From the IMG/VR virus record IMGVR_UViG_3300031247_000001: a DNA stretch of 64,000 bases; one strand, given 5' to 3'. Below are positions 8,509-60,633 of this stretch, one piece after another. The notes below the pieces were generated by a model that saw only the letters and a list, made by a program, of their open reading frames with translations, was not told where the DNA came from and ran no database searches. Source of the stretch: an uncultured virus (IMG/VR IMGVR_UViG_3300031247_000001). Taxonomy: Duplodnaviria > Heunggongvirae > Uroviricota > Caudoviricetes. Position numbers and translations under genes: made by a program. Position 1 is the stretch's first letter, and every line of letters begins with the position of its first letter.

Positions 8509-8512
8509 CGTC

Positions 8513-8845
8513 CTAGGGAGCGGCCTCATCCGAGCAAGCGTCAGCCGCGTCGCACGAGGTCGCGCGCGCCTGACAGCGTGGGTTCTCGGAGGCGTAGCCG
8601 GAGGACTCGACGTTGTGACAGACCGCTTCGCAGGGCTCAACCTTTGGAGTGGGATCACCCGCCGGGCAGTGGAGAACGCGCAGATGCACGCACATCGCCG
8701 CGCAGTCGGCGTCCGTGCCCGTCGGCAGCGGTCCGTTGTGGTTGACCGGAAGCGGCGGGATCGCCGAGCAGCCGTCTATGAGCGTCCACAAGACGACGAT
8801 GCCCGCCTTCACAGTCAGCCACCCGAGCACGCTCACTGCCTTCAT
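8513..8845 (-). CDS. Small Cys-rich exported/lipoprotein-like protein
   Basis: Hydrophobic N-terminus then GC, with multiple paired Cys; ATGA overlap with the peptidase stop. Confidence 0.55.
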   Translation of the reverse strand: MKAVSVLGWLTVKAGIVVLWTLIDGCSAIPPLPVNHNGPLPTGTDADCAAMCVHLRVLHCPAGDPTPKVEPCEAVCHNVESSGYASENPRCQARATSCDAADACSDEAAP

Positions 8846-33296: not shown

Positions 33297-33306
33297 CCTG
33301 GGCAAA

Positions 33307-33342
33307 TTCCTACCAGTCGTGCCCGCACGGCCGCAAGTTTTT
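33307..33342 (-). promoter_or_regulatory. Conserved promoter AAAAAC-TTGCGG-N18-TAGGAA
   Basis: Recurrent motif. Confidence 0.5.
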
Positions 33343-33348
33343 GGAGCG

Positions 33349-33855
33349 ATGCCACCTTCGGGACCGAAAACTTTCGCTCCCGTCGCCCCCAGGCTATTCT
33401 CCCAGCCGATGAATGCCCCGCGCCCCATGTGGGACCACGGATTTGGCGACGCCGCCGCGCCCGCTCCGGCGCCGGCCCCGCTCCCCGTTGACCCATCCGC
33501 GCCGCCTCCTGCGCAGGCGGCCCCTCTCCCGCAGGCCCCGGCTCCGCTCGCCCCCCTGCCCGCTCCAGCACCCGCGGTGACCCCAGCTGCCGCGCGCCGT
33601 CGTGCCGGCGCGGCCATCGTGCTCACGGGCGTCGGCGTCGGCGCAGGCGCGCTCCTCGGTGGACTCTGGGGCGCCGGCTCCGGTCTCTTCTTCGCAGGCG
33701 CCCTCTCGAACGCCCTCCGCGCTCAAAGCCTCTGGCGCTCCGACTTCGCCGACGACCGCACCGAGGCCATGAAGGCCACGGTGATGACGGTGCTCGGCGT
33801 CGGCCTCGCTGGCTACCTCGGCTACCGCGCGCGTGAAGCGCGCGAGGACGACTGA
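33349..33855 (+). CDS. Pro-rich membrane protein (GFGD motif)
   Basis: WDHGFGDAA, a Pro/Ala linker and 2-3 hydrophobic helices. Confidence 0.65.
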   Translation: MPPSGPKTFAPVAPRLFSQPMNAPRPMWDHGFGDAAAPAPAPAPLPVDPSAPPPAQAAPLPQAPAPLAPLPAPAPAVTPAAARRRAGAAIVLTGVGVGAGALLGGLWGAGSGLFFAGALSNALRAQSLWRSDFADDRTEAMKATVMTVLGVGLAGYLGYRAREAREDD

Positions 33856-34208: not shown

Positions 34209-35048
34209 ATGGCTGAAGTTGTATTGATGGACGGGCAGTGGACGATGTGCCAGTTCCTGCGGCCGTTCGAGAATTTCGAGCGCGTCTATCAAGGCCAATC
34301 GGGAACGCTTCCGATCGCCTTCCCGGGCGACCTCGATCAGTTCGCGGTCGACGGCACGCCTGGGTACGACCCGAACCTCATCGCGGGCATCACGGTCCCC
34401 TACGGCTCTCGCGTGACGATTTGGATCCCGCAGACCATCGCCGACTACACCGTCAACGCGCTCTATCAGTACCAGATCCTCTGGCGCATGCGGAACGTGC
34501 GGGACTATCGCGAGGGGCAGACCAAGGGCGCGGTCTCCGCTTTGCAGAACTACACGGGCTACCACCTGACCACGAGCGGCTTTGGTCAACCCGAAGTGGC
34601 CAGCGCCCCCGTCACTTCCTCGAACGCTCGCTACTTCCTGCCGGGCGCGACGCGCACGGTGGCCTTCGAGCAGAGTGAGCCCGCGCTCGGCGATCCCGGG
34701 GTCATTCATCTCACCGGCGAACGCCTGCAGCCCACGATCAATCCGGTCTGGGTGCAGCCGCTCACTCCCAAGGGTAACCCCGCCGTCTGGCAGCAGGGCA
34801 CTTATGTGGGCTCCTCTCACGCGAACAACGGAGGCCCCTCGTGGCTCACGTTTACGTGCGACGCCGATGGCGACGAGATGAGCATCTTGGCCTACAAGAT
34901 CCCGCCCGGTGAAGGCCCCTACCCCGCCTGGGACTTCACGACATCCGATCCCGGAGATCTGAGCTTCTCCAACACCTTCGGCAACAGCAATGGCCAAAAC
35001 CGCGGCACCCCCTTCACTTCGATCTTGGTGACCACCGGCACTTCGTAG
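34209..35048 (+). CDS. Putative beta-rich virion structural protein
   Basis: AAGGA RBS; T/G/P/aromatic-rich; no recognisable family. Confidence 0.6.
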   Translation: MAEVVLMDGQWTMCQFLRPFENFERVYQGQSGTLPIAFPGDLDQFAVDGTPGYDPNLIAGITVPYGSRVTIWIPQTIADYTVNALYQYQILWRMRNVRDYREGQTKGAVSALQNYTGYHLTTSGFGQPEVASAPVTSSNARYFLPGATRTVAFEQSEPALGDPGVIHLTGERLQPTINPVWVQPLTPKGNPAVWQQGTYVGSSHANNGGPSWLTFTCDADGDEMSILAYKIPPGEGPYPAWDFTTSDPGDLSFSNTFGNSNGQNRGTPFTSILVTTGTS

Positions 35049-35150
35049 TGGCAGCTCGGCGCCGACGGAAGCCGAGACTTTGCCGTCCAGAGCGCGGGCC
35101 GTGATCGATGGCACATGCAAAGGGAGCTCGGCCCCTACGGAAGCTGGGAC
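35043..35150. CRISPR. CRISPR-like mini-array: 2 repeats and one 36-nt spacer
   Basis: Repeats at 35043-35078 (left end degenerate) and 35115-35150 match the consensus GTGCAAAGGGAGCTCGGCCCCTACGGAAGCCGAGAC; spacer 35079-35114. Confidence 0.75.
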
Positions 35151-35171
35151 GACGACAGCAAGACATCGAAG

Positions 35172-35978
35172 ATGCTCCTCGATCCTTACCCCGGGCCTCG
35201 CGCTCCACAGATCAACACACTCTGGGTCGTGGTGCCGTTTTCTCGCCCGCACTACTTCGACAATGTGTGGCGAAACTTCGAGCGCCAACGCTTTCCAGGT
35301 AAGCGCCTCTTGATTGCTGCCAACGGCCTTGGGAGCGGCGCAGAGTCGATGTGGCGAGATCTCGGCGCCGACTTCATCGCCACCCGCGATCACCAATCCA
35401 CCGCCAAGAACGAAGCCCTCGCGTTCATTCGGAAGCACGGCGGCGGCTGCTTCTCGATCATGGACGACGACGACTGGTACGGCCCCGGCTACCTCGACGA
35501 GGTCGCGGGCTATGCCAAAGACTACGAGGCGCTCGGCAAGCAATGGCACTTCGTGTCGCTCGGTGAGGGGGATCCGGGTGAGGTGACGTTCGTGTGCGCC
35601 AATCGCCGCTACGCTAACCTCGATCCCGCCTCGTGGTTTACCGGCGGCACGATCAGCGGCTGGGCGGAGACGGCCAAGGACTTCCCCGTCGTCGCCGAGG
35701 GCGAAGACATTCAGTGGTGCCACGCGATGAAGCGCCAGGGCGCTCGCCTGCGCGGGCTGTCGATCTACCACTACCTCTACCGGCGCTCGTATGGAGGTGC
35801 CAAGCACGCGTGGCGCATCACCCGACAAGCATTTGAGCGAGCGCTCCGGGTCGGAGACGCGCTCGAGTTCCCGCTGACGGGGATGGGTCAGATCGATCTC
35901 GACATCGTGACGGGTGAAAAAAATCCGACCGAGTGTCGCCTGATCGGACAGCAGAAGTTCGTGGCGGTTCCGGCGTAA
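35172..35978 (+). CDS. Glycosyltransferase family 2-like (GT-A) protein
   Basis: VVVPFSRP, AKNEAL, IMDDDDWYGPGYL and GED. The ORF-track start at 35115 lies inside the repeat. Confidence 0.75.
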   Translation: MLLDPYPGPRAPQINTLWVVVPFSRPHYFDNVWRNFERQRFPGKRLLIAANGLGSGAESMWRDLGADFIATRDHQSTAKNEALAFIRKHGGGCFSIMDDDDWYGPGYLDEVAGYAKDYEALGKQWHFVSLGEGDPGEVTFVCANRRYANLDPASWFTGGTISGWAETAKDFPVVAEGEDIQWCHAMKRQGARLRGLSIYHYLYRRSYGGAKHAWRITRQAFERALRVGDALEFPLTGMGQIDLDIVTGEKNPTECRLIGQQKFVAVPA

Positions 35979-36037: not shown

Positions 36038-37342
36038 ATGATCAGTGTCTTCACGCCGCTCGCGGCGTCCGGTAACTCCTACATCCAAGCAGCTTACGAT
36101 TCGCTCGTCGCGCAAACCGTCACGGACTGGGAGTGGATCGTCGTCGAGAACCACGGCGGCATGCTCCCGAAAAAGATCCGGAAAGATCCGCGCGTCAAGC
36201 TCTCCGGCATCAACCTCGAAGGCATCGGCGCGCTGAAGCGCCACTGCTGCACGCTCGCCACGGGGGAGTATTTGTTCGAGTTCGATCATGACGATCTGCT
36301 CCACCCCCAAGCGCTCGAGAAGGCCCTTCTGGCCTTCGACCAGGGTGCCGACTTCGTCTTCTCGGACACGGCGGAGTTTCAGGACAAGACCTGGGCTCCT
36401 AACGTCTACGGCACGCAGTTCGGGTGGTCGAGTTATCCGGTGACCTTCCAGGGCCATGAGCTCCTCGCTCAACCAAACCCTCCCGTCACGGCGCACAACC
36501 TTCGCCTCATCGACTTCGCCCCGAACCACTTCCGCGCGTTCCGCCGGGACGCGTACTGGTCGGTCGGCGGTCACAACGCAGATCTCCACGTCGGCGACGA
36601 CCACGACTTGATGCTGAAGTTTTTCCTCGCGGGGCTGACGTTCCGGCACGTCCCCGAGTGTTTGTACTTCTACCGCGTGCACGACAAACAAACGACCAAC
36701 GCCAACGTCGGCAACGCGCGCATCCGGCAAGTGACCGAGTCGCTCTACGACCAGCACATCTTCGACTTGGCGGAGAAGTTTACGCGCGACTACAGCGTGA
36801 TTCTGCCGCTCAAGAAGATCGATCTCTGCGGCGGCATCGACACGTACAAGGACTACACGCCGCTCGACCAAACGCTCGGTCACAACCTCGACGAGATCTG
36901 GCCGCTCGAAGGCGAATCGGTCGGCGTCATCCGCGCCTTCGATGCGATCGAGCACCTGAAAGATCCCATCCACACCCTGAACGAAGCCTACCGCGTGCTC
37001 GCGCCCGGCGGCTTCTTCCTCATCCAGGTGCCCTCGACGACGGGCCCGATGATCCGCGCGCCCGCGATGGATGGAGGCGAGTTTCACTGGGTCGCCTCCG
37101 CGGGCCGCGGCGCTCACCAAGATCCGACCCACGTCTCCTTCTGGAACGAAAACTCCTTCTGGTACTACACGAAGCAGTCTCACGCGCGCTACATCCCGCG
37201 GAGCCAGGCGAAGTTCCAGGTGATCAAAATGAGGACGTTCTACCCGAGCGCTTGGCACATGCAGCGCGCCATCCCGTACGTCGAGGCGCATTTAATCGCG
37301 CTGAAAGACGGGTACCGACCCATGGGGTTAGTAGAAATCTAG
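36038..37342 (+). CDS. GT2 glycosyltransferase fused to a SAM-methyltransferase-like domain
   Basis: ISVFTP, SLVAQTVTDWEWIVV, FDHDDLL, DDHDL; C-terminal DAIEHL..EAYRVLAPGG and QDPTH. Confidence 0.85.
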   Translation: MISVFTPLAASGNSYIQAAYDSLVAQTVTDWEWIVVENHGGMLPKKIRKDPRVKLSGINLEGIGALKRHCCTLATGEYLFEFDHDDLLHPQALEKALLAFDQGADFVFSDTAEFQDKTWAPNVYGTQFGWSSYPVTFQGHELLAQPNPPVTAHNLRLIDFAPNHFRAFRRDAYWSVGGHNADLHVGDDHDLMLKFFLAGLTFRHVPECLYFYRVHDKQTTNANVGNARIRQVTESLYDQHIFDLAEKFTRDYSVILPLKKIDLCGGIDTYKDYTPLDQTLGHNLDEIWPLEGESVGVIRAFDAIEHLKDPIHTLNEAYRVLAPGGFFLIQVPSTTGPMIRAPAMDGGEFHWVASAGRGAHQDPTHVSFWNENSFWYYTKQSHARYIPRSQAKFQVIKMRTFYPSAWHMQRAIPYVEAHLIALKDGYRPMGLVEI

Positions 37343-38594: not shown

Positions 38595-40787
38595 ATGACG
38601 AATCGAGCCAGACTCGGCGCTTCGGCGCGTGGCACACCCCGAGTCCCCCCTCTTACTGGTGGCGGATCGCAGGGCGCTCAAGGCGCGCCGGGCGCGCAGG
38701 GGTTTCAGGGCGCGCAGGGTTTCCAGGGCTCGGGCGGCGGCGCGCAGGGCGCGCAGGGAGCCCAGGGATTCCAGGGCGCGCAGGGGTTTCAGGGGTCGGG
38801 CGGCGGCGCGCAAGGTGCGCAGGGAGCCCAAGGCTTCCAGGGCGCCCAGGGCTTTCAGGGTAGCGGCTTCCAAGGTGCGCAGGGCGCGCAGGGCTTCCAA
38901 GGTGCGCGAGGAGCTCAGGGTTTCCAGGGCGCTATCGGACCGCAGGGCTTCCAGGGGCCGCAGGGAGCCCAAGGCTTCCAGGGGTCGCAGGGAGCCCAAG
39001 GCTTCCAGGGCGCGCAGGGCTTTCAGGGCGCTATCGGACCGCAGGGCTTCCAGGGTTTCCAGGGGGCGCAGGGCTTTCAGGGCGGCGGCTTCCAGGGCGC
39101 TCAAGGCGCGACGGGAGCGACGGGCACGCAGGGATTTCAAGGCGCAAACGGAGCTCAAGGCGCTCAGGGGTTCCAAGGATCGCAGGGTTTCCAGGGTCAG
39201 GCTGGCCCCGGCGGCGGCGCGCAGGGCGCTCAGGGTTTCCAGGGATCGCAGGGCGCGCAAGGCTTTCAGGGTGGCGGCTTTCAGGGCGCCCAAGGCGCGC
39301 AGGGCTTCCAAGGCGCGACGGGCGCGCAGGGCTTCCAAGGCGGCGGTTTCCAAGGTGCGCAAGGCGCGCAGGGTTTCCAGGGTCAGGCTGGCCCGCAGGG
39401 GTCGACCGGGCCGCAGGGCTTTCAGGGCTTCCAGGGCGCGCAAGGCTTTCAGGGTGGCGGCTTCCAGGGGGCGCAGGGCGCGACCGGCTCCCAAGGCTTT
39501 CAAGGTAGCGGTTTCCAAGGCGCGCAGGGCGCTACCGGGGTGCAAGGCTTTCAAGGCGCCCAGGGTTTTCAGGGTGCGACCGGGCCGCAGGGCTTCCAGG
39601 GATTTCAGGGAGCGCAGGGCTTTCAAGGTGGTGGGTTCCAGGGCGCGCAAGGCGCGACCGGCGTCCAAGGCTTTCAAGGCGCGCAGGGTTTCCAGGGTGC
39701 GACCGGGCCGCAGGGTTTCCAGGGATTTCAGGGAGCGCAGGGCTTTCAAGGTAGCGGTTTCCAAGGCGCGCAGGGCGCGACCGGGGTGCAAGGCTTTCAA
39801 GGCGCGCAGGGTTTCCAGGGTGCGACCGGGCCGCAGGGTTTCCAGGGTGCGCAGGGTTTTCAGGGTGGGGGGTTCCAGGGGGCGCAGGGCTCGACCGGCG
39901 CGCAGGGTTTTCAGGGAGCGCAAGGCTTCCAAGGCGGCGGCTTCCAAGGTGCGCAAGGCGCGACCGGGGTGCAAGGCTTTCAAGGCGCCCAGGGCTTTCA
40001 GGGTGCGACGGGCGCGCAGGGTTTCCAGGGATTCCAGGGCGCGCAAGGCTTTCAAGGCGGCGGCTTCCAGGGCGCGACGGGTACGCAAGGGTTCCAGGGG
40101 GCGCAAGGCTTTCAGGGCGGCGGGTTCCAGGGAGCGCAAGGCGCGACCGGGGTGCAAGGCTTCCAAGGCGCCCAGGGCTTTCAGGGTGCGACCGGGCCGC
40201 AGGGCTTCCAGGGATTCCAGGGGGCGCAGGGGTTTCAGGGCGGCGGCTTCCAGGGCGCTCAAGGCGCGACCGGCGTCCAGGGTTTTCAAGGAGCGCAGGG
40301 TTTTCAAGGAGCCCAGGGATCTCAAGGGTTTCAGGGATCGGGAGGCGGCGCGCAGGGCGCTCAAGGCGCGCAGGGCGCTCAAGGATTTCAGGGGTCGGGC
40401 GGCGGCGCGCAAGGCGCTCAAGGCGCCCAGGGGTTTCAGGGCGCGCAGGGTTTCCAAGGCGCGGGCGCGCAGGGCGCTCAAGGTGCCCAAGGCGGCGGCA
40501 GTGGGACGGGGCTCACCATCGTCGCGCGCGGGACAGTCACCGTCAACGGCTTCGGCGCCGCCTCTCTTGGTCCCTACACGAACGCCGCCGGTCTTGCGGT
40601 GACGCTCTTCCTCACGGTGGTGCCGACAGGCAACGGCGATGACTCGTCCTGGGGCGTGAGCTCGACGGGCGCCGCGATCAGCTGGAAGTTTCACGACTCG
40701 GGTTTCAGCGGCACGCAATACGGATTTACGATCACCAACAACAACGGCACCAACCGCACGATGTTCTACGCGGTTGTTGGGGTGTGA
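38595..40787 (+). CDS. Collagen-like fibre protein (about 610 aa of Gly-X-Gln repeats plus a small C-terminal beta domain)
   Basis: [12 protein letters not shown] triplets with GG interruptions. Confidence 0.9.
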
Positions 40788-40788: not shown

Positions 40789-41505
40789 TCAGCGCCCGGG
40801 ACCCGACCACACGCGCATCAAAAATTCGTTGTCGTAGATGTTGCCCGGGATGACGCCGGGAATCATCTCGTGCCGCCAGAGCACGTACGGCAAGGAGAGC
40901 TGGTCCTGCACCGACCAGTGCACGCACTCATCGAGCCACGCCTTCTCGAGCTCAGCAATCGGTGGCCAGTGCCAGCGCGCGATGCAGCCGCCGGCATAGA
41001 GACGGTAGCCCTCGAGCGCTTTTGGCATCCCCGCCGATCGGTAGTGCGCCACCTGCTCGATGCAGGGCTCACCCTGGTACTTCGGGAACGTCATCGAGAA
41101 TTCGGCCTCGGCCTCGAGCGAGCGGAGCGGATCTTCTGGGTGCTCGAAGAGCGCAATGGATGCCCTAGGACTCCGAACACCCCGAGTGGTGATGCCAGTC
41201 AGCGCGTGGTGACAGCGCTGCAGCATCAAGTGAGGCTCCTTCACGCGCACGCTCGAGTCGATGTAGATCGACCACTCCCTGTCCGGGAACAAGTGGCACG
41301 CGCTCATCTTGAACCACTTTGCGTCCATGCGCGGCGACCTGAAGACGCTCCGGCGCACGAAGACTCTCCAGTGCGGGAGTTTGTCGACGAGCGAAGTATC
41401 GTCGGTGAAGCAGACGAGATCGGCGACGCCGCCGAGATCCGGGATGTCGACGGGCTTGTCGTGGTCGCCGAAGCACGCGGTGTAGATGATGGGCTTGTCG
41501 GTCAT
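40789..41505 (-). CDS. DUF616 (TOD1/MUCI70-like) glycosyltransferase
   Basis: IYTACFGDHD, CFTD, KWFKMSACHLFP, SIYIDSS, HP..R and DQLSLPYVLW. Confidence 0.8.
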   Translation of the reverse strand: MTDKPIIYTACFGDHDKPVDIPDLGGVADLVCFTDDTSLVDKLPHWRVFVRRSVFRSPRMDAKWFKMSACHLFPDREWSIYIDSSVRVKEPHLMLQRCHHALTGITTRGVRSPRASIALFEHPEDPLRSLEAEAEFSMTFPKYQGEPCIEQVAHYRSAGMPKALEGYRLYAGGCIARWHWPPIAELEKAWLDECVHWSVQDQLSLPYVLWRHEMIPGVIPGNIYDNEFLMRVWSGPGR

Positions 41506-41507
41506 GC

Positions 41508-42131
41508 TCAGCGCGCGATGTTGAAGAAGAATAGCTGCGCGAGGCGCGGATTCTCGGCGGTGAAGCCCTCGTAGCTCGTCGCCGAATGAATGAGCTGTGC
41601 GTCCCAGAGCACGAGCCGGTTGTAGACGCTGCCGACGCGATCGACGAGCTCCCAGTTGTCCGGATGCGTGAGATTGAACTCGCTGTACACCTCGGCGTAG
41701 GCCTCAGCATTGGTGGGTGGCCGCCGGCACGCATAGTCGGTGTTTCGCCAGAAGCTCGTGCCGGCGTCGATGCGCGAGTAGGGAGCGCCCTCATAGGCAG
41801 GCGCCTGGGTCAAGTAAATCGCGGCCGCATAATTCTGCGTGTCCGAATGCCACACGAGGGGATCTTCTCCCGTCGTCTTCTGGAACGACCCATTGGCTGG
41901 CTGATCGAGCCAGTCGACGATGCTGACGCCGAGCACACGCTGAAATTCCTCCCGCACCCAGGGAAACAAAAACTTCTGCTTCGAGCGCAGGCCCTTGAAG
42001 TAGCGGAGATCGGCCTCGTACTCGGTCTCGAGCGCGAGCGCTCGCACGGCGTCGGGGTCTTTGTAAAAATCGTCGACCACGAGGATCGCGGGGGTGCGGC
42101 GATGAAAGCTCCCCACTGGCACACTCACCAT
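41508..42131 (-). CDS. 2OG-Fe(II) oxygenase (DUF6445-like)
   Basis: VVDDFYKDPD, WHSD, IYLT, GTSFW, YNRLVLW...HSA and RLAQLFF (HxD...H...R). Confidence 0.8.
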   Translation of the reverse strand: MVSVPVGSFHRRTPAILVVDDFYKDPDAVRALALETEYEADLRYFKGLRSKQKFLFPWVREEFQRVLGVSIVDWLDQPANGSFQKTTGEDPLVWHSDTQNYAAAIYLTQAPAYEGAPYSRIDAGTSFWRNTDYACRRPPTNAEAYAEVYSEFNLTHPDNWELVDRVGSVYNRLVLWDAQLIHSATSYEGFTAENPRLAQLFFFNIAR

Positions 42132-42508
42132 TGTCGGCCTTCTTTCACTGCACGGTCCCTGCGATCCCATTCTTTTTTGATGGCTTTCCTGAGCGGCTCG
42201 AGCTCGAGCCTGAGCTCGGCGAGCACGAGCGGGCGAAAGAGTTTCCAGAAGCGTTGCACGGCGTCAGCGCCGACTTCGGGGCCGCCTTCCCAGTCGGGGA
42301 TGAGCGCTTCCAGGGCGGGCTTCGTGAGGATGTGCCCATTGATCTCATCGGCGTACTCGGTGAGACCGAAGACGCGCTCCTCGTCCGTCTCCCCGAACGA
42401 CTCGACGATCTCTTCGGCGGTCTGTCGGGCAAGGCGGTAAAACACGCTGGGCAGCGTGCTCATGGGGTTTGCTCTGGGTGCGGCATGGGGTCCCTTTCGA
42501 TGAGGCAT
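42125..42508 (-). CDS. Hypothetical protein
   Basis: Coupled to the oxygenase gene; start uncertain (42463 or 42508). Confidence 0.45.
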   Translation of the reverse strand: MPHRKGPHAAPRANPMSTLPSVFYRLARQTAEEIVESFGETDEERVFGLTEYADEINGHILTKPALEALIPDWEGGPEVGADAVQRFWKLFRPLVLAELRLELEPLRKAIKKEWDRRDRAVKEGRQW

Positions 42509-44257: not shown

Positions 44258-44629
44258 CCACCCCTCGCCCCAAAAACTTGAGCCGCACCCGAAAGGCAGG
44301 GTAGTCTCGCCCCACTAGGTCGGTTTGGGCTCGGGCTGCTGCCCGCAGGCAAACGGGACGATCGAGCGGCGCGCAGATTTGCGCTTTCCCTCGGAGCGTC
44401 CCTTGACCATGGACACCAGCAGCGTTGCCAGCCGAAATATCGGGGCAGTAGCCACCCTCCTCGGTGCGCCCAATTCCCTCGAAAACGTCGGCACGCAAAC
44501 CCTCGACGACGGTTGCTGGGCTTACGTGCAGTCCGAGCTCAAGCACTACGAGCTCCACAAAGAATCGACTGCCCCGTCCAATCCTCCCTTCGTCATCGTG
44601 CCGATCTGCGGCGTCGGTCGCTGGGTGCC
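44258..44629 (+). repeat. Duplicated promoter + leader + N-terminal anchor module, copy 2
   Basis: High identity to 42586-42958. Confidence 0.85.
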
Positions 44630-47600
44630 TGGCGGTGGCGGCGCGCAGGGCGTGCAAGGGGCTCAGGGTCCGCAGGGCGCGCAGGGTTTTCAAGGTGGCG
44701 GCTTCCAAGGCGCGCAAGGCGCAGTCGGCACGCAGGGCTCACAAGGTGCGCAGGGCGCACAGGGGCGCCAAGGCTTCCAGGGGAACGGCACGCAAGGCGC
44801 GCAGGGATCTCCGGGCGCGCAAGGCCCGAGCGGCGGCGCGCAGGGCGCTCAAGGCGCGAGCGGCGTGCAGGGTTTCCAGGGCGCGCAGGGGTTTCAGGGC
44901 GGCGGCTTCCAAGGTGCGCAGGGCCAGACCGGCGCTCAAGGCGCTGGCGGCGGCGCGCAGGGCGCTCAAGGCGCGAGCGGCGTGCAAGGTTTCCAGGGCG
45001 CGCAAGGCTTTCAGGGTGGCGGCTTCCAGGGCGCGCAAGGCAATCCCGGCGCGCAAGGAGCGACGGGCACGACCGGCGCGCAGGGCAGCCAAGGGGCGGC
45101 GGGCACGACCGGCGCGCAGGGTAACACCGGCGCGCAGGGATCCCAGGGCAATCAAGGCGCGAGCGGCGTGCAAGGTTTCCAGGGAGCGCAAGGCAACCAA
45201 GGGACGCAAGGCGCGGGCTTCCAGGGCGCGCAGGGCTTTCAGGGCGCGCTCGGTGTCACCGGCGCGCAGGGTTTTCAGGGCTTCCAGGGCGGCGGCTTTC
45301 AGGGCGCGCAGGGATCTTCGGGCGCGCAGGGTCCAGGCGGCGGCGCGCAGGGCGCTCAAGGTGCGCAAGGCACGCAGGGCGCTCAGGGCACGCAGGGCGC
45401 GGGCTTCCAGGGCGCTCAAGGCTCGACCGGCACGCAGGGTGGCACCGGCGTGCAGGGTTTCCAGGGCGCTCAAGGCTTTCAAGGCGGCGGCTTCCAAGGC
45501 GCGCAGGGCGGCACGGGCCCGCAGGGTCCCGGCGGCGGCGCGCAAGGCGCGCAGGGCGCAGCCGGCACGCAAGGCTTTCAAGGCGCGACGGGTGTGCAAG
45601 GCTTCCAGGGAGCGCAGGGCTTCCAGGGAGCGCTCGGTGTCACGGGCGCGCAGGGCTTCCAGGGGTCGCAGGGCTTCCAGGGTGGCGGCTTCCAAGGCGC
45701 ACAGGGATCGTCCGGCGCGCAAGGTCCCGGCGGCGGCGCGCAGGGCGCTCAGGGCGCATCCGGCACGCAAGGCTTCCAGGGAGCGCAAGGTTTTCAGGGC
45801 GGCGGGTTTCAGGGCGCGCAAGGTCAGACCGGCGCGCAGGGCGCGGGTGGCGGCGCGCAAGGCGCGCAGGGCGCTCAGGGTAGCGGCGGCCAGCTCAATC
45901 CCGCCAACGTCGCGGCGCTCCAAGCGATCAACGCGACCTCGCTCCCGTCGGGCACGCTCGCCGACACGGGCGTCGTCGGCGATCTCTATCGCCTGAACAA
46001 ATCCCCGACCGCCGGTGAGACCGCAGGCATCGACGCCACCAACGTCGTTGCCGTGACGACGCCAGCGGGCAGCGTCTTCGAGCGGCTCGGTCTCGCGAAC
46101 AAGTCGTTTGCGTTCGTGGGCGCATGGTTTATCGACGGCACGGCTGGCAACGACACGAACGATGGTCTCACGAGCGGCACGGCGCTCAAAACGCCGAGCG
46201 AGCTCGCTCAACGCCTGAGCCCCGGTGGACAGCTCTGCAGGATCCAGCAGTCAGTCACCGTCCAGATCGCTAACGTCCCCGCGGGCGAGATCAACCTCAA
46301 CCTGGACGCGCCGCCAGGATCTGGGTTTGCCTTCACGATCCAGGGTGATTTTACGAGCAGCGCGCCCATCACGCTCGCCACCGTCGTCGATACGGTCGCC
46401 TCCGCATCCCCCGTGCGAGGTCGGCTTACCACCGCGAGCGGGACGTTCGTGGACAAGGCCCGCATTCGATCGACCAGTGGCGCGGCGGTTGGAGCGATTA
46501 CTTATTCCACGGGGCTCAACTCCACGACGGATACGTGGGTTAAGGCCTGGCAACTCGGCCTGGCCAACGCGCAAACGAACATCGCTCCGGGCACCACTTG
46601 TGTCGTGGACACGCTGGTATCCACGCTCACGATTGCCAGGATCAAGCTCGGTCGCAATATCGCTCTCCGCGTCAACGACTTGAAGCTCCCGAACGGGATC
46701 GAGGTTGACAACTTCGACAGCGGTAGCGCCTCCGATTTGATACAGCAGTGCGAGCTCGGATCGGCCAGCACGACGTGTCGGCTCTTGGGCAATGTGCAGT
46801 TCATCAACTGCAACGGGGTCAACGCTCTAAACACTGGCGTCACCAACACGCCGCAGCCGATCTTCCGAGGCTGCGTGCTCGGCGGTACGTTCTTTTCGGG
46901 CGCAGGCGCGGCGGCCGCTTGCCCGAGCATGCAGGGCGGAACCAATTGCTTCAACGGAGGCGCGCTCTTTCTGGGCGGCAATACGGCGACCGCCATGGCG
47001 AGCCATGGACTCGATACTGCCGTCGAGTGGGTCAATGGCGTCGCGGCGGTCGCGATCACGGTGAAGAAGGGCGCCATCCTCGGGATCCGAGGACAGCAAT
47101 TCGGGTTTGGAGGGACTTACTCGATCGGCATCCAAATGGAGAGCGGCAGCACTGCCGTAACGGACTCAGCGTCGCTCGTTGCCATCCCCGCAACGCAGCA
47201 GCTGTCGATGACGGGGCACAATCTCAACTACTCGGACATCCCCGCCAATACGTTTTTCCCACGAGCCGCGTGCGTGTTCGCGATCAACCCCGATCCGGGC
47301 GCGACGAGCGGATCGCAAGGGTTTCAGGGCGCGCAAGGCGTGCAAGGTGCGCAGGGTTTCCAGGGCTCAGGCGGCGGAGCTCAGGGCGCACAAGGCGCTC
47401 CCGGCGTCGCTGGATCGCAAGGCTTCCAGGGCGCGACGGGCGCAAGCGGCGGCGCGGGCTTCCAGGGCGCGCAAGGCGCCTCCGGGCCGCAGGGCTTCCA
47501 GGGCGGCCTCGGTCAGGGCGGCGCGCAGGGATCGCAGGGTCGTCAAGGCGCGACCGGCACCGCGGGCGCCGCGGGCACGCAAGGCTTCCAGGGCGCGCAG

Positions 47601-49730
47601 GGCGGCGGCTTCCAAGGCGCCCAGGGCGCGCAGGGTCAGACGGGTCCGGGCGGCGGCTCGCAAGGCGCGCAGGGCGCGACGGGCGTGCAGGGCTTCCAGG
47701 GCGCGCAGGGCTTCCAGGGTGGCGGCTTCCAGGGCGCCACCGGATCGCAGGGCGCGACCGGCACGCAAGGCTTCCAGGGCGCGCAGGGTTTCCAAGGTGG
47801 CGGGTTTCAAGGCGCGCAGGGTGCAACCGGCGTGCAGGGCTTCCAAGGCGCGCAGGGTTTTCAAGGCGGCGGCTTCCAAGGGGCCACCGGATCGCAGGGC
47901 GCGACCGGCACGCAGGGCGGCCAGGGCGCGCAAGGCGCGACCGGCGCTGGCACGCAGGGCGCGCAAGGCGCGACCGGTACGCAAGGCTTTCAAGGCGCGC
48001 AGGGCTTTCAAGGCGGCGGCTTCCAAGGCGCCACCGGATCGCAAGGCGCGACGGGCACGCAGGGATCGCAAGGCGCGCCCGGATCGGGATCGCAAGGCGC
48101 GCAGGGCGCAGCGGGCACGCAGGGCTTCCAGGGCGCGCAAGGTCGACAGGGGAGCACCGGCACGGCAGGCACCGCTGGCGCTCAAGGCGCGCAGGGTAAC
48201 ACGGGCGCGACCGGCACGACGGGCGCGCAGGGCGCCTCTGGCCCGGCGGGCGTGCAAGGCTTTCAAGGTGGCGTCGGCCCCGGCGGCGCGCAGGGATCGC
48301 AGGGTCGCCAAGGCGCAACCGGCGTGCAAGGCGCGGTCGGCCCGCAGGGATTCCAAGGCGCGACGGGCGCCGGCACGCAGGGCGCGCAGGGTCGCCAAGG
48401 CTTCCAGGGCGCCGCGGGCGTGCAGGGCGCCCAGGGCTCGTCGGTGGCGCCGCTCACGCAGGTCTTCTACGTCGACTCCAAGAATACGGGCGCCGCGAAC
48501 GGCTCCATCCAGGCGCCCTTCGCGTCGATGACGGCGGCGCTCGCTGTGGTGCCTCTCAATGTGCCGACGACGTTCTTGGTGACGCCGCACACGTACGCCG
48601 AGACGATCACGATTACTAACGCGCAGGCGGACATCACCATCGTTGGGCTCGGGCCGCCGACGGATCAGTCGGTGATCTTCACCGGCGCGTGCCATGCGTC
48701 GTTCTTGTCGTCGGACTCGACGCTCACGCTCCAAAACATCCTGGTTGAGGGCGCGCTCACCGAGACTTCTGCTTCCGATCTCGGCACGACCTTCGCGCTC
48801 GTCGACACGCACATCGGCGGCAACGTCACCGGCACCGGCTCGAACGTCGGCAGCACCAAGCTTCGGATGGGCTCGGCCCTCCCGTACGAAAGCGGCAGCG
48901 GCACCGGCGTAGTGATCGACGGCGACCTCACGACCTTCGAGCAGGTGCTCGCAGAGAACGCCAGCATCGCGAATTTCGCCGGCCCAACCGCCGACAATCA
49001 GCAGTTCGCGAACCGCTTTACCAACTGCTACTTCGGCTCCGCAAACCTCGGGGGCCCATCGATCTGCGAGGGCTGCGTCTTCCCAAGTGGACTGGCCTCA
49101 GCGGCGTCCTCGACCACCGCGAGCTACCTCACGGACTGCGTCATCGACGGCGACATGCTGTCATCGACGGGCCACTCGCTTTATGTAAACGGGGGCCTCA
49201 TCGGAGCGGGCGCCCCCATCCCGCCCCTCGCGCTCAATTGGCACGGGATCGTCAATTTCCGAAACACCCTCTTCGGTCCGTTTTCTAGCGGTCACGTCGC
49301 AATCACGGCGCCGCTCACGACCCTCCAGCTCGACAGCGCGAGTGAGCGAAGTCTCTTTTCGACGACCGGAGGCAAGGCGACGCTCTCGGCGGATTCGGTC
49401 GGGATCTACGCGCTCGATCAGGGAGAGTCGGATGCGGTGCAACTCGCGGACTCGTCCTCGGGATACGGCGTCGCTGGGATCGGTCGGCTGTTTCTGCCGT
49501 CGACCAAGCTCACGGCCGACCGCACGATTCAGTTGGCGGCGGGCGGCGGGTCTGGGCTCGATATGCTGCCGCTCGATGTCTACGGCACCAACGGTCACAC
49601 GCTGACGGTGCAGTTCAATTCGGTGACCATCAAAACGATCGTTAGCTCGCACGTGCCCGCTCGGTACTTCTTCCAAGTATCAGAAGACAACACGGTCGTG
49701 GTTTACATCGGAGTGGAGAGCTTCCAATGA
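44409..49730 (+). CDS. Giant collagen-like fibre with two globular (beta-helix-like) modules
   Basis: Two Gly-X-Gln tracts; [14 protein letters not shown] and FYVDS...GSIQAPF motifs. Confidence 0.88.
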
Positions 49731-52642: not shown

Positions 52643-53230
52643 TTGATGACGAAGCGAGCGACGGCTCGGTCGGTGCCGCCGCCGGCCCCCCCAGAGCGAG
52701 GGCAGTGCCTCCCGCGCGTGGAGGAAGAGCCCCTCAGCGCTGAAGAGGCGTACGTCGTCCTCGAGCCTTACTTCGAAGTGGTCCGCGAGGAGTACCTCGC
52801 TCAGGGCTTCAAGAAGTGTAAACGCACGCGTCTCTTCATCGCGCCCGCGATGCACGACTCGCCGCGCCACTTTGGCGCCTGCAAAGACGATGGGTCTGCG
52901 ATCTTGCTCGCCCCCGAGCTCGCGGACGTGGCCGACACCGTGATGCTCGCGATCATGGCGCACGAGTTTGGGCACGCGACCGATTTCCTCTACCCGGGCG
53001 AGTTTGTGCTCGGGCGGAGTGGCCCGGCGCTGCGGCGGCAGCGCGCGGAGGTCGAGGAAAAGCAGTGGAGCAAATGGCTGAAAGCCTGGCACCGCCGCGA
53101 CGAAGACGTGGTGGAGATCACGGCGGACGCCATCGCTGAGCGCGTGATGGGGGTGCCCTACGGCTACCAGGGACCCTGCTGGATCCAAAGCTTTGACGCC
53201 GCAGAAGCGCGGCCCATGGGACTCCGATGA
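52643..53230 (+). CDS. HExxH metallopeptidase-like protein
   Basis: IMAHEFGHATD...VEITADAIA. Confidence 0.7.
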   Translation: MMTKRATARSVPPPAPPERGQCLPRVEEEPLSAEEAYVVLEPYFEVVREEYLAQGFKKCKRTRLFIAPAMHDSPRHFGACKDDGSAILLAPELADVADTVMLAIMAHEFGHATDFLYPGEFVLGRSGPALRRQRAEVEEKQWSKWLKAWHRRDEDVVEITADAIAERVMGVPYGYQGPCWIQSFDAAEARPMGLR

Positions 53231-53442
53231 CCGACGAATCTCCGCAAACGTTTCCGACCATCGAAGCAGTCATCGCAGCTCACATCCGCTCGGTGCTCAT
53301 CGCTACCCGTTGGAACTGCTCCGAATCCGCCCGGATCCTCGGCATCGATCGGCGCACGATCTACAGGCAGATCGCGCGCTACAAGATCGAGCGACCCCCG
53401 GAAGAGAAAAGCCCCGCGCCGAGCTCGGCCTGCGGGGAGTAG
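53227..53442 (+). CDS. Fis-type HTH protein
   Basis: HIRSVLIATRWNCSESARILGIDRRTIYRQIARY. Confidence 0.85.
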   Translation: MTDESPQTFPTIEAVIAAHIRSVLIATRWNCSESARILGIDRRTIYRQIARYKIERPPEEKSPAPSSACGE

Positions 53443-53453
53443 ACTTCTCTCGC

Positions 53454-54155
53454 ATGCCAGTGGCAGCGCCTGAACAGCGCGGAAGTAACCCGCGTCCCGG
53501 TGACGATCCCAACGAGGTCGTCAAGCAGTGGACGCCGCTCGTGAAGATGCTGGCGCGCTCGTACAGTAAGCACCTCGGTCGCTGGTACGAGTTTGATGAT
53601 CTCGTCGCGATTGGTCAGGAGGCGCTCTGGGGGTGCATTTCGTATTGGAGAGAAGACGGCGGCGCCATCTTCAAGACCTTTGCGTACCATGCGATCGTGC
53701 ATCGGTTTGAGGCGATCAAAAAGTACTGGAGGAGCAACAAGCGTCGGGGGTCGATCTACTCTGACAGCATCGAAGACCCCGGCGAAGGTCGCCCGCGGAC
53801 CGAGCTCAGCATCGAGGCCGATGACCAGGCGCTCGATCACCAGCGCGCTCTCTCGGGCCTCCGGCAAGCATTTGGTGGGCTACAGCCCCGCGAGGGTTAC
53901 GTGCTAGAGGAGCGCTTCCTCGGCGATCGGTCTCTAAAAGAAGTCGGGCAGGCGCTCGGGGTTTCCCGGGAGCGGGCGCGTCAACTCGAGCGGCGCGGGC
54001 TCCAGAAATTGCGGAGATCGCTCATGGAGATCATCCCGGAGCTCCGGGATGCGCCTCCGGTCTCGAGCGGAGCCAGGGCCCGCTCGAGGACGGACGCCGA
54101 GGTGGGGCGCTGCAATCAGCAGCGCGCCCGACGAAAAGTTGCCCTCGGGCCCTGA
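53454..54155 (+). CDS. Sigma-70 family sigma factor (regions 2 and 4)
   Basis: DDLVAIGQEALW, FKTFAY and SLKEVGQALGVSRERARQLERRGLQKLR. Confidence 0.88.
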   Translation: MPVAAPEQRGSNPRPGDDPNEVVKQWTPLVKMLARSYSKHLGRWYEFDDLVAIGQEALWGCISYWREDGGAIFKTFAYHAIVHRFEAIKKYWRSNKRRGSIYSDSIEDPGEGRPRTELSIEADDQALDHQRALSGLRQAFGGLQPREGYVLEERFLGDRSLKEVGQALGVSRERARQLERRGLQKLRRSLMEIIPELRDAPPVSSGARARSRTDAEVGRCNQQRARRKVALGP

Positions 54156-57097: not shown

Positions 57098-58462
57098 TCA
57101 CCATGGCCGCTCCTTCAGCTGCGGGAACATCGCCATCGCCCGCAATCGATCGACCTCCCCGAGCTCTACCTGCCGCTCCTCGGCGGTGCGGTTTGATGCC
57201 CAGCTAGCTTGCAGGTTGTAGACGCTCAAGATCTGATAGATGCACGTGTAGCGCGCGCCCGCCATCTCGAGCAGCGGCCACATGACGGCCTTGTCGATGG
57301 CGAGCGAGACCCAAGAGCCGTCGGGACGAAATAGGCAAGAAGGCGCGACGCCCGGACCGTTCGCGAGCTTCTTTGCTAGACCCGCCCGGAACGTCTTCAG
57401 GTGGGTCGCTCGCCAGTCCGAGTACCGCACGCGTGCGCCGAGCGCATAGGGAGCCGCAAACCCGACCTCCCCATCGGAAAACATGAATTGTCCGTAGGTG
57501 AGCCAAGGCTCGGCCTTCGCGGCATAGGCGAGCGCCAAGACCTCGAGCGCGCGATCGTGCGCTAGCCAGTCGTCGCCATCGAGCCAGACGATGACTTCGT
57601 CGTCGGGGAGATCTTTCCAAACCGACCAGCAGTTTTCGAGCGCGGAGAGGCGCTCGGGGTTTCGGATCACGGTGAGCTGCTGATCCGTTTCCATATTGAA
57701 GAGCGCGATCTCGCTCGTGCGGTCCTCGCTCTTGGCGTCGATGACGACGTGGGTGTAGTTCCGGAAAGTTTGATCGAGCACGCTGTCGAGGCACTTCTGG
57801 ATCCAGCGCTCGGCGTTGAGCGCGGTCGACACGATCGTCATGTGCAGGGGCTTACCGCTCTTCACGAGCACGCAGAAATTGTGGCGCCCCATCCAGTGCT
57901 GGGCCTGGTGCACCTCCATGAGTGAGCGGAGCTGCGCCGTGCGCGCCTCGTCCAGCGTCCATCCATGAATGCGAAAGCGCGTGAGCCAGTACTCGGGCGG
58001 CTGCAAGTTGATGTGGCCCTCCCATTCCTGACCGGGCGCTGCCGCCGACCACACGATCACGTCCGTCGCGTGCACTGCGACATTTTCGACGATGGCGAGC
58101 GAATGCTGCTCGGAGATGTGCTCGGCCGTCTCGGTGCAGATCACGCAGGAATACTTGGCAACGGCGCCAGCCCCTTGCAGGGTTTGGGTCAAGTCAAACC
58201 GTTGCACCTCGACCCCCGGCTCGATCATCTCGATCGCGTGCGGCGAGTACTCCGCCCCGATCGTGCCCTCCCACCCGAGCTCGATCAGGCGAGCGGTCTG
58301 TAGGCCGATACCGCACCCGATGTCGAGGCAGCTCGGTTGCTGCCCGACTACCGCGTGGATGCAATCGGCGAGCTTTCGGTAGTTGTCGCGGCACTCGCGC
58401 ATTTGCTCGAAAAATGCCTGGTCATGCGGGTCTCGATTGGCTTGATTTTCAGTGTTTCCCAT
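57098..58462 (-). CDS. SAM-methyltransferase fused to GT2 glycosyltransferase
   Basis: LDIGCGIG, ETAEHI and GHINLQ; then NAERWIQKCLDSVLDQT and WLDGDDWL. Confidence 0.85.
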   Translation of the reverse strand: MGNTENQANRDPHDQAFFEQMRECRDNYRKLADCIHAVVGQQPSCLDIGCGIGLQTARLIELGWEGTIGAEYSPHAIEMIEPGVEVQRFDLTQTLQGAGAVAKYSCVICTETAEHISEQHSLAIVENVAVHATDVIVWSAAAPGQEWEGHINLQPPEYWLTRFRIHGWTLDEARTAQLRSLMEVHQAQHWMGRHNFCVLVKSGKPLHMTIVSTALNAERWIQKCLDSVLDQTFRNYTHVVIDAKSEDRTSEIALFNMETDQQLTVIRNPERLSALENCWSVWKDLPDDEVIVWLDGDDWLAHDRALEVLALAYAAKAEPWLTYGQFMFSDGEVGFAAPYALGARVRYSDWRATHLKTFRAGLAKKLANGPGVAPSCLFRPDGSWVSLAIDKAVMWPLLEMAGARYTCIYQILSVYNLQASWASNRTAEERQVELGEVDRLRAMAMFPQLKERPW

Positions 58463-58536
58463 TGCGTGAGACAGTAGCGTGCTATCTTCGGGAAGGAAAG
58501 CCGAAAGCCCGCAGTAGCACGGGGGAGGAGATCGCC

Positions 58537-59295
58537 ATGAAGAGTTTGTTTTTGGTTTGCCTCATCGTCGCCATGACTGCCTGCGGCGCGCCGTTCACGG
58601 CGGAGTCGTTTACCGATAGCGGGAGCGCCGGTGCCATCGGGGCTCCGGCGGCACCGAGCGCAGGCGCGGCCGGCGCCGAGCCGCGCGAGGATGCCGGCGG
58701 AGCGACGAGCATCCCGCTCGAGTCAGCTGGCGCCGCCGGCGCCGCCGGCGCGCCTGACCTAGGCTCCGCCGGCGCGCCGAGCGTCGACCCGCCGCCGCTC
58801 TACACGCCGCCCCCGTGCTCCACCGACCAGAACGTCACCGGCGGCTACGACGGATCGCTCAGCGCCGCCCCTGCCTGCCTCCGCACCAAGGAGGCCCTCA
58901 ACACCGTTGCTTGTGCCAACTGGGACGGGCGATCGATCACCGTCAACGGCGCCGCGGCGACCTGCGGCGTCCCGCTCTCCTTCCCGGAGAGCGTCGATGG
59001 CTTCACGTACATCGATCTCGGCCCGGGGACGAGCTCTGGCGTCGCGCTCCGGTGGTTTTTGACAGCGCCCGCCCCAAACCCCTGCGACGCGCGTTGGTGG
59101 ACCCAGGGCGACCTCTACGCCCCGAACGAAATCATGCTCGATGTCTGCGACGCGCCCGGGAGCGAAAAGAGCTGCGAGCTCGGCAAGACCTACGCCTTCT
59201 CGTGCCTCGACACCCCGACCAGCCGGTGCACCAGCACGGGGCCCGGCGCAAGCGGCTGGACTTCGAGCTGGGCGCTGGTTACCCTCTGCAAGTAA
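58537..59295 (+). CDS. Cys-rich lipoprotein
   Basis: GGAGG RBS; lipobox MTAC; Gly/Ala linker; Cys-rich domains. Confidence 0.75.
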   Translation: MKSLFLVCLIVAMTACGAPFTAESFTDSGSAGAIGAPAAPSAGAAGAEPREDAGGATSIPLESAGAAGAAGAPDLGSAGAPSVDPPPLYTPPPCSTDQNVTGGYDGSLSAAPACLRTKEALNTVACANWDGRSITVNGAAATCGVPLSFPESVDGFTYIDLGPGTSSGVALRWFLTAPAPNPCDARWWTQGDLYAPNEIMLDVCDAPGSEKSCELGKTYAFSCLDTPTSRCTSTGPGASGWTSSWALVTLCK

Positions 59296-59521
59296 AGGCA
59301 GCGCGACGCCTACGGAAGTCGCGACCACGCGGTGCTGGGGCAAAGGGAGCTCGGCCCCTACGGAAGCCGAGACAAGCCATGACCGAGAAACGACCGCCAG
59401 GGTTTAGACAAGTGCAAAGGGAGCTCGGCCCCTACGGAAGCCGAGACAAATCCTGCCGGGCGGCTACCTGGCCTATCTCGACACGGTGCAAAGGGAGCTC
59501 GGCCCCTACGGAAGCCGAGAC
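59290..59521. CRISPR. CRISPR-like mini-array: 4 repeats with spacers of 12, 38 and 38 nt
   Basis: Repeats at 59290-59325 (diverged), 59338-59373, 59412-59447 and 59486-59521; the last two are identical, GTGCAAAGGGAGCTCGGCCCCTACGGAAGCCGAGAC. Confidence 0.88.
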
Positions 59522-59593
59522 CTGCTAGGTTTGCGAGGGGGCTAGCGGCCAGAATTTGACTTCGGATCCGGTACCCGGGTAGCCTCTCGTTCA

Positions 59594-59974
59594 ATGGCCG
59601 TTGCAATTGGATCCCGCGTCGCGCTCAAGACTCTTGGACAAGGTCTGGCCATCGGCCAGGTGACCGCTCAGCCGCCCGTCTTTGGCGTGTCGCAGACGGC
59701 CTCCCCGGGCCCTTGCGTCATCGACTGGGAGAACGGCGCTCAAGCCACGGTGCCGCTCGCGGTGCTGGACGAACTCCTCGGGGCCAACCCGACTACGCTC
59801 GGTCTCATCGGGCAGGTCGTCAACGTCGAGGGGCAGTCGGCGGCGTACAATGCCCTCGTGGTCGATGCCTACAACCGCAACGGCACTCAAGAGCTCGTGC
59901 TCGTCAAGACCCTAAACAACGGGACGTACTTCGAGCTCGACGCCACCACCGTCGTCCCGCAACCGAACCTCTGA
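59594..59974 (+). CDS. Putative virion protein
   Basis: Preceded by TTGACT-N18-TAGCCT (59556-59585); beta-rich. Confidence 0.6.
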   Translation: MAVAIGSRVALKTLGQGLAIGQVTAQPPVFGVSQTASPGPCVIDWENGAQATVPLAVLDELLGANPTTLGLIGQVVNVEGQSAAYNALVVDAYNRNGTQELVLVKTLNNGTYFELDATTVVPQPNL

Positions 59975-59979
59975 GCCCG

Positions 59980-60324
59980 GTGGACCTCGACGCTCGCACG
60001 TCGTGCCTGCGCGCCGTGACGCTCGTCGCGCGCAATGCTCGGCTCTGCGCTTCAGTGGACCCGGTCTCCGACACGTACAAGTCGGCGGTGGCCTCCGCCG
60101 TGCGGGTGGGCGAGCGCGCCGCCGGCTACTTCAAGACGATGAAGGGCGATCACGCGCCGCACGAGCGCCAGGTGCGCGTCGTCGGCGACGCGCTCGAAGA
60201 GGCGGAGATCTGCGTGAGGCAGCTAGTCTCCGGGCTCACGGACGCTGATGATCTGGCGCTCCAGGCGGAGAAGATTGAGCGGGCGGTGGCGCGGGCGGAG
60301 AGGCTGATAGCGGCTCCTGGTTAG
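59980..60324 (+). CDS. Hypothetical helical protein
   Basis: GTG start just after the upstream stop. Confidence 0.45.
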   Translation: MDLDARTSCLRAVTLVARNARLCASVDPVSDTYKSAVASAVRVGERAAGYFKTMKGDHAPHERQVRVVGDALEEAEICVRQLVSGLTDADDLALQAEKIERAVARAERLIAAPG

Positions 60325-60360
60325 GAGGATTCGTGGCCCAATCGGGAACGGCGATGGCGG

Positions 60361-60633
60361 CTAGTTCGCGACGGCGCTGTCGTGCTCGAGAATCCAGCGT
60401 GTGTAAGTCGTCTGCAAGTCGAGCCAAAACTCAGGACTCGTCTTGAGTGCAGCGGCGAAGCCGAGTCGCACCGTCATGAACACCCCAGTCGGCATCGAGA
60501 CGTGGCTCACGTAGGTGCCCCAAGGCTTCGGGGGGCGCGATCGCAGGAATGGGTAGGCAATCGCCATGAGAAACAAGACGAAGCAGGAGGCCGCGACGAT
60601 CGCGGAGTCTGGGATCGTAAACGATAGGTGCAT
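60361..60633 (-). CDS. Small membrane protein with HigA-like C-terminal motif
   Basis: TM followed by AALKTSPEFWLDLQ. Confidence 0.45.
   Translation of the reverse strand: MHLSFTIPDSAIVAASCFVLFLMAIAYPFLRSRPPKPWGTYVSHVSMPTGVFMTVRLGFAAALKTSPEFWLDLQTTYTRWILEHDSAVAN

Follow-up and report, generated by a model that had tools for sequence, protein, structure and literature searches.

Two CRISPR mini-arrays in a 64-kb phage sequence and their probable link to a phage-encoded type V-M (Cas12m) system

The stretch of phage DNA analysed here, 64,000 nt in length and referred to as the window, carries a 36-nt repeat unit six times, always on the + strand, with four copies at 59290-59521 and two at 35043-35150. 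Both loci are probably satellite CRISPR mini-arrays of a type V-M (Cas12m) system encoded by the phage itself, rather than truly Cas-less units. A subtype and a probable effector can thus be given to an array that had seemed orphaned. Two points stand against this explanation: no cas gene appears in the window, and no targets were found for the spacers, so that interference is put forward as a proposal. The first-pass annotation had described a Cas-less CRISPR-like mini-array on a viral element at 59.3 kb. The array is indeed of CRISPR type, lies on a virus and has the extent described at that locus; however, the second mini-locus at 35043-35150 had been missed, and the term 'Cas-less' is probably wrong, since a relative of the phage (G002) has cas12m.

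The two mini-arrays and their neighbouring genes

At 59290..59521, the three near-identical 36-bp repeats, the two 38-nt spacers and the diverged fourth copy reported earlier were all found again. The diverged copy leads the array (copy 0, 59290..59325, +, 49.2 bits) and overlaps with its 5' part the TAA stop codon at 59293-59295. It starts 48 nt upstream of the start of repeat 1, from which it is separated by a conserved 12-nt gap (59326..59337, +); both copy 0 and the gap recur in G002 and in another locus of the family, L006. The stem of copy 0 is kept by compensatory changes, reading CGCGAC/GTCGCG where the rest of the array has CTCGGC/GCCGAG, and in G002 the stem of this copy is kept through another pair of compensatory changes. 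The remainder of the array, also on the + strand, consists of repeat 1 of the type V-M family (59338..59373, 54.7 bits), spacer 1 (59374..59411, 38 nt), repeat 2 (59412..59447, 56.7 bits), spacer 2 (59448..59485, 38 nt) and the terminal repeat 3 (59486..59521, 56.7 bits), of which the GAGAC end is intact. Judging from type V crRNA anatomy, the 20 nt that follow (59522..59541, +) would be the guide of the crRNA made from the terminal repeat. Repeats 1-3 share an identical 34-nt core with a period of 74 (TRF score 227), and the stem CTCGGC/GCCGAG sits 2 nt from the 3' end of the repeat. In 100 dinucleotide shuffles, no match to the core with three or fewer mismatches was obtained.

The second mini-locus came partly from a search with this core, which gave 35117-35150, and partly from reading of the sequence, by which the partner copy at 35043-35078 was seen. 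It comprises repeat A (35043..35078, +, 51.1 bits), the 5' part of which overlaps the TAG stop codon at 35046-35048, a 36-nt spacer (35079..35114, +) and repeat B (35115..35150, +, 48.8 bits), in which two mismatches in the 3' stem strand give G-U pairs. The 21 nt between repeat B and the probable start codon of the next gene (35151..35171, +) would be 5'UTR and 'terminal guide' at once. When the whole window was searched with a covariance model of the family, exactly these six copies were returned, with scores of 48.8-56.7 bits, the next best match reaching 12.5 bits. The register is regular (period 74 at 59.3 kb and 72 at 35.0 kb), the spacers are 36-38 nt long and all different, and the only exception to the register is the 12-nt gap after copy 0. 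No Rfam family was matched and no tRNA was called by ARAGORN.

Both mini-loci are on the coding strand between co-directional genes, and each begins on the stop codon of the gene upstream. For the 59.3-kb array this is a putative lipoprotein gene (58537..59295, +), read from M42 of ORF 58414-59295 and co-directional with the array. From M42 the product reads as a signal peptide ending in Cys, which bears out the earlier lipoprotein label, and homologs of the gene stand just before the mini-array in G002. The gene downstream (59594..59974, +) matched nothing in Pfam or PHROG, and its former designation as a virion gene is unsupported. A homolog of this gene is preceded by a five-copy array of the same family in L007, a 1.2-kb contig. 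A block conserved between the window, L007, G001 and L019 (59550..59596, +; TTGACT-18 nt-TAGCCT) lies just before ATG 59594 and looks promoter-like by eye only; a consensus scan called no promoter there, and such scans found none near either mini-locus. The second mini-locus likewise lies between two genes. The upstream one (34209..35048, +) ends in the TAG at 35046-35048, and the downstream one (35172..35978, +) is absent from G002 and present in G001. ATG 35172 is the probable true start of the latter, because only from residue 21 onwards does the long ORF show homology with G001. A comparison with PHROGs was uninformative for the genes flanking the mini-loci.

The window is phage DNA, encoding a DnaB helicase, a DnaA-C domain protein, ThyX and a sliding clamp together with collagen-repeat fibre-like proteins and a peptidoglycan-binding hydrolase-like protein. 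Several other features of the window were recorded. Two proteins of the sigma-70 family (regions 2 and 4) are encoded at 7960-8658 (-) and 53193-54155 (+). The ORFs with collagen-triple-helix repeats at 38595-40787 (730 aa) and 44325-49730 (1801 aa) are very long and are probably fibres. Two fusions of a glycosyltransferase family 2 domain with a methyltransferase (36038-37342, +; 57098-58462, -), together with TOD1/MUCI70-like and DUF6445 genes at 40789-42170, look like a sugar-modification cluster around the fibre genes. An ORF on the opposite strand within a + strand gene block (32676-33626, -) matched the eCIS-core domain (E 2e-6), and an A+T-rich 18-nt tandem repeat of 2.1 copies was seen at 18340-18376, in the part of lowest GC (0.598 over 18-20 kb).

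The repeat as a Cas12m crRNA scaffold

To describe the repeat, 46 distinct copies were aligned; four of the 50 collected were left out, one being misregistered by a 1-nt insertion and three having no 5' half. The hairpin formed by columns 13-18/29-34 is crossed by a 3-bp helix of columns 8-10/19-21, as in a pseudoknot. Both helices are paired in 98.8% of 414 cells, compared with 91.1 +/- 0.8% in 500 shuffles, none of which reached as high a value, and pairing drops to 30-43% when the helix partners are slid. Across the 46 distinct copies, five of the nine pairs show double-sided changes, and both helices have compensatory support. A G:A pair closes the 6-bp helix. Position 12 is a G in every copy, and A35 and C36 are found in at least 90% of them. 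All six window copies end in GAC and four of them in GAGAC.

These features were compared with the solved crRNA of Cas12m2, which has a 36-nt repeat-derived scaffold with a 6-bp pseudoknot helix beside a G(-23):A(-2) pair, a base-read C(-1), a flipped-out A and a coaxial stem (PMC10442227). The loop of the repeat found here is 2 nt longer than that of the Cas12m2 crRNA. The Ms, Tf, Un, Pp and Mk Cas12m crRNAs all end in GAGAC and share a common ...GCUC...GAGAC frame (PMC11013384 supplement). Because the anatomy of the repeat matches both the solved Cas12m2 crRNA and the GAGAC-ended Cas12m crRNAs, the units were assigned with high confidence to the type V-M (Cas12m) CRISPR repeats. Of the two strand readings offered by the first-pass annotation, the + strand type V reading was therefore the correct one, and the repeat anatomy together with the effector of the relatives now supplies the subtype. 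The minus-strand class 1 reading was rejected, being contradicted by the co-direction of repeats and cas12m in three relatives, by the pseudoknot and by the 3' GAGAC; no class 1 cas gene was detected with Pfam and PADLOC among 75 ORFs of the window.

Cas12m in related phages and the position of the effector

Three IMG/VR contigs were found with the repeat pattern (G001, G002 and G003, the last being IMGVR_UViG_3300012532_000215), and all three carry a cas12m of their own. The first of these, G001, is 135,429 bp long, has terminal repeats and is rated 100% complete. An ORF of 488 aa lies just upstream of its 23-repeat array and in the same direction. This ORF matched PDB entry 23vw_A, named Cas12m, with E 3.8e-36 and UnCas12m4a with 2.7e-10; in PADLOC it matched Cas12u1 (5.2e-48) and one Cas12f model (2.4e-49), and in Pfam only a sub-threshold match to the TNB zinc ribbon was seen. 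No Cas1 was found in this complete relative. Homologs of the G001 protein adjoin arrays in G002 (76% identity) and G003 (41% identity by tblastn, 47% in a separate genome search). The phage Cas12m proteins of the relatives are short, at 488-537 aa. In the alignment with 23vw, the first RuvC Asp corresponds to Asn in all three, while the Glu and the last Asp appear to be kept.

In the three relatives, the repeats and the adjacent cas12m are co-directional. Beside cas12m, the family forms arrays of 13-26 regular copies with unique spacers. The search for the repeat in long arrays near cas genes, which the first-pass annotation had suggested, thus led to arrays adjoining cas12m. All 26 repeat copies of G001 are at the cas12m locus and none is at either of the two sites occupied in the window; satellite arrays are accordingly not universal in the group, and gene content is variable. 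In G003, a phage fragment of 41 kb, cas12m is accompanied by a main array of about 26-28 repeats and by about eight dispersed single copies (e.g. at 5693, 9030, 11751, 12584, 17974, 19048, 27874 and 38797), most of them on the strand of the main array. Two minor observations were made at these loci. In G001, the cas12m start is closely preceded by three worn repeats, 15 and 25 nt apart (L002 13214-13361 = G001 28975-29122); the last of them ends about 30 nt before the ATG, and they could form a self-regulatory unit. One weak repeat match falls inside the cas12m ORF of G003.

Within the window, 234 ORFs reach a length of 100 aa; among the 75 of these that were chosen, Pfam and PADLOC gave no Cas model. 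A six-frame tblastn search with the Cas12m of a relative had a best E of 1.3. The earlier statement that the 64 kb hold no cas gene therefore stands for the 75 ORFs tested and for the Cas12m search. By tblastn, 63 of the 75 window ORFs were matched in G001. Two of the IMG/VR contigs that have cas12m beside long arrays of the family are collinear with the window. One of them is G002, a linear contig of 110,728 bp that is rated 82% complete. Window positions 1-59295 correspond to G002 42,057-110,266, in blastn blocks of about 72-78% identity; left of the 59.3-kb array lie 68 of the ORFs, and 55 of them match G002 in order. At its left end and on the minus strand, G002 has five repeats (59-383) and cas12m (455-1996). 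At its right end, six copies on the + strand (110,351-110,692) come immediately behind the homolog of gene 58537..59295; a truncated repeat lies at the equivalent of the 35-kb locus (84,519-84,551). Both ends of the contig thus lie within arrays, as expected because assemblies break at repeats.

Since the collinear contig G002 unites the shared mini-array locus with a cas12m of its own and a main array, an effector outside the window is favoured. Most likely, the effector is encoded by the same phage beyond the 64 kb, and if the layout matches that of G002, cas12m would most likely sit about 40 kb to the left of the first base of the window. This placement is drawn from synteny, and the DNA of the relatives shares only about 72-78% identity with that of the window. 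The first-pass annotation had proposed a host or out-of-window effector; through G002 the out-of-window part is favoured, while borrowing from the host is probably wrong. More generally, where only part of a viral sequence is in view, a 'Cas-less' call can be an artefact of the stretch examined.

At the 59.3-kb locus, the spacers differ among the window, G002 and L007, and the repeats differ slightly, while the flanks are conserved. Invariance of the spacers among relatives, which had been named earlier as evidence against a CRISPR array, was therefore not what was found. As a separate observation, the lineage of the window and G002 has a large inversion relative to G001 (G001 block of about 42-135 kb), and one of its junctions falls at the mini-array. 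Repeat-mediated inversion was considered and rejected, as the other junction in G002 and the two sites in G001 are free of repeats.

The distribution of the repeat was examined in metagenomes and in cellular genomes. A pattern scan of JGI metagenomes gave 17 loci with the repeat family, of which seven are arrays of 4-26 copies and ten have one to six copies; the seven include the G001 record itself and a fragment of its array. Among 185,579 species-representative bacterial and archaeal genomes, the strict repeat pattern had no match. A looser 24-nt pattern gave 15 loci in the same genomes, and their candidacy as host arrays was dismissed: all are single-copy, all are without the 5' half of the repeat, none has a Cas12m homolog within 10 kb, and they were judged to be chance matches.

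A rhizosphere metagenome run (X1) contained 92% of the words sampled from window positions 58400-60400 and is the likely source of the stretch; none of the RNA runs contained it. The contigs of this run break at repeats, and the window's own pieces have depths of 16.7 and 14.4. A 3,882-nt contig of similar depth (16.8) has the repeat, identical over 35 nt, at its end, and its flank is absent from the window; another loose end was seen after an identical repeat. The bins that hold the repeat have a summed word depth of about 187, compared with 14-17 beside them, a value that is not a copy number. These data hint that the identical repeat has further units beyond the window, either in this genome or in one that occurs with it.

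Proposed function, alternatives and relation to known systems

For the satellite mini-arrays, the following mode of action is proposed. Read-through from the upstream genes would transcribe the mini-arrays, and Cas12m would cut the transcript within each repeat. Each resulting crRNA would consist of a repeat-derived 5' handle and about 17-20 nt of the next spacer. The complex would then bind PAM-flanked DNA of a rival element or of the host, blocking transcription or replication without cutting.

The spacers were searched for targets in several ways. Exact 20-nt seeds of the three window spacers had no match in IMG/VR. With blastn, 59290-59560 gave a best E of 0.07 against phages and plasmids, and all matches were within the repeat sequence and not in the spacers. 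When all spacers of the family were compared by blastn-short with the window, G001 and the loci, the window spacers had no match beyond chance. The matches obtained were of three kinds, namely copies within the same array, one self-match in G001, and an L019 spacer in collagen-like low-complexity repeats. The self-match joins a G001 spacer (L002 11280-11313) to G001 18417-18444, with 26 of 28 nt identical from the first base of the spacer, and could reflect self-targeting or targeting of close kin. The L019 spacer matches collagen-repeat ORFs of the window over 20-21 nt with one mismatch, in low-complexity sequence. Guide seeds of 17 nt, searched with up to four mismatches in the window, G001 and G002, matched at chance level (3-4 mismatches); among these is a 3-mismatch match of the spacer 1 seed inside the cas12m of G002. 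No partial guide match to cas12m, its surroundings or another promoter exceeded chance, the terminal guide 59522..59541 included.

Several other explanations were weighed. The phage could be truly Cas-less, having lost cas12m or never had it, with mini-arrays that load the Cas12m of the host or of a co-resident element. This would agree with the failure to find an effector within 64 kb and with the variable gene content of the relatives, such as the lack of ORF 35172-35978 in G002, and virus-borne arrays without cas genes are established according to the consulted part of a review (PMC11656645). We nevertheless consider it unlikely, as the repeat occurs in none of the 185,579 species-representative genomes beyond chance matches to the loose pattern, all three repeat-bearing IMG/VR contigs have their own cas12m, and synteny puts the gene outside the window rather than missing from it. 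The position of the units raises a different question, since each locus opens on a stop codon and in one of them 21 nt separate the last repeat from the start codon that follows. One reading of this arrangement, which we regard as rather unlikely, is that Cas12m repeats have spread to gene junctions in this clade, in the order stop codon, repeat(s) and 5'UTR of the next gene. Cas12m would have a second role in processing or regulating the phage's own operons, and terminal guides taken from the neighbouring 5'UTR would silence related phages that do not have the insertion. If true, a CRISPR effector would here have been domesticated to control viral genes and to compete with kin, beyond classical interference. 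The units might also act mainly on the phage's own RNAs, with Cas12m cutting polycistronic transcripts or sitting on the next 5'UTR and so tuning expression, a role that may coexist with guide production. The roughly eight dispersed copies of G003, mostly on the main-array strand, are in keeping with such a role, as is the stem of copy 0, which the window and G002 keep through compensatory changes that differ between them, although this copy has no normal spacer. However, this support is purely positional, spacers of canonical length that differ among relatives point to a guide function, and G001 has no dispersed copy, so that a main action on own RNAs seems quite improbable. With the dispersed repeats, a coupling of crRNA production to phage operons can be put to the test.

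The two remaining explanations concern what the repeat would mimic or whether it is a CRISPR repeat at all. As RNA anti-CRISPRs or crRNA-like regulatory decoys, the units would imitate the V-M repeat of a host and soak up or misdirect its Cas12m. Solitary phage repeats that mimic host repeats (PMC10651486) and viral crRNA-like regulators (bioRxiv 10.1101/2024.10.29.618823) are known, as far as the consulted parts of these sources go. Here, though, the cognate effector is encoded by the phage lineage itself, no host array with the repeat was found among the 185,579 species genomes, the units have full-length variable spacers, and guide matches to cas12m or its surroundings are only at chance level; a decoy function is thus highly improbable. 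A non-CRISPR origin, as an intergenic REP-like or terminator-like structured repeat, or else a class 1 repeat on the minus strand, would suit a hairpin that folds on either strand and copies that are intergenic. It is close to negligible in probability, given that the family forms arrays of 13-26 regular copies with unique spacers beside cas12m and in the direction of that gene, that the crossing helix 8-10/19-21 and the conservation of G12, A35 and C36 fit a + strand V-M scaffold, that no T-run follows the stem, and that Rfam holds no matching family. The reading as satellite mini-arrays of a phage-encoded V-M system was thus retained as the probable one.

Compared with the known type V-M systems (formerly V-U1), represented by MmCas12m2, GoCas12m, MsCas12m and TfCas12m (PMC10442227; PMC11013384), the window family is alike in its 36-nt GAGAC repeat and pseudoknotted scaffold, in the homology of the relatives' effector to solved Cas12m, and in the lack of an adaptation module, as indicated by the absence of Cas1 from G001. 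By analogy with these systems, the expected mode would be DNA binding without cleavage. The window differs in that its arrays are tiny (1-2 spacers plus a terminal unit), are tens of kb from the expected effector and abut the stop codons of unrelated phage genes. The effectors of the relatives differ in their short length and in the Asn at the first RuvC position.

Cas12m borne by a phage has already been published, and the window is a further example of this recently described kind of phage CRISPR. The myxophage MV-1 encodes a Cas12m, according to the consulted part of its report (bioRxiv 10.64898/2026.09.14.751636), and UnCas12m comes from an IMG/VR contig (supplementary Table S2, PMC11013384). 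As far as the consulted parts of these reports extend, both resemble the present case: the Cas12m system is carried by a phage, cas1/2/4 are missing, and no targets have been identified for the spacers. They describe one array beside the gene, whereas the clade of the window, as seen in G002 and G003, has extra arrays or single repeats elsewhere as well. What is added is a clade of soil and rhizosphere phages with genomes of about 135 kb and compact Cas12m systems with several arrays at different sites. As small natural DNA binders with guide scaffolds, these are of practical interest for CRISPRi and base-editing tools.

Virus-borne mini-arrays and solitary repeat units (PMC11656645; Racr, PMC10651486) are similar to the window loci, in the portions of those sources that were consulted, in being very short viral arrays with no nearby cas. 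They typically match a host system, whereas here relatives of the phage itself carry the effector and no matching array turned up in the host genomes searched. The CreR/crlRNA units, as presented in the consulted part of PMC10120712, share degenerate repeats and odd spacing with copy 0 and its 12-nt gap and with the worn copies of G001. Unlike these, the window copies have no cas gene beside them, and their guides showed no partial complementarity to cas promoters or others.

A possible further relative was noticed in GenBank. Positions 112507-113424 of KX853510.1 (Virus Rctr197k) matched the Cas12m of G001 by tblastn with 31.6% identity over 61% of the query (E 3e-26). This region is annotated only as transposase-like and may encode another virus-borne relative of Cas12m or TnpB.
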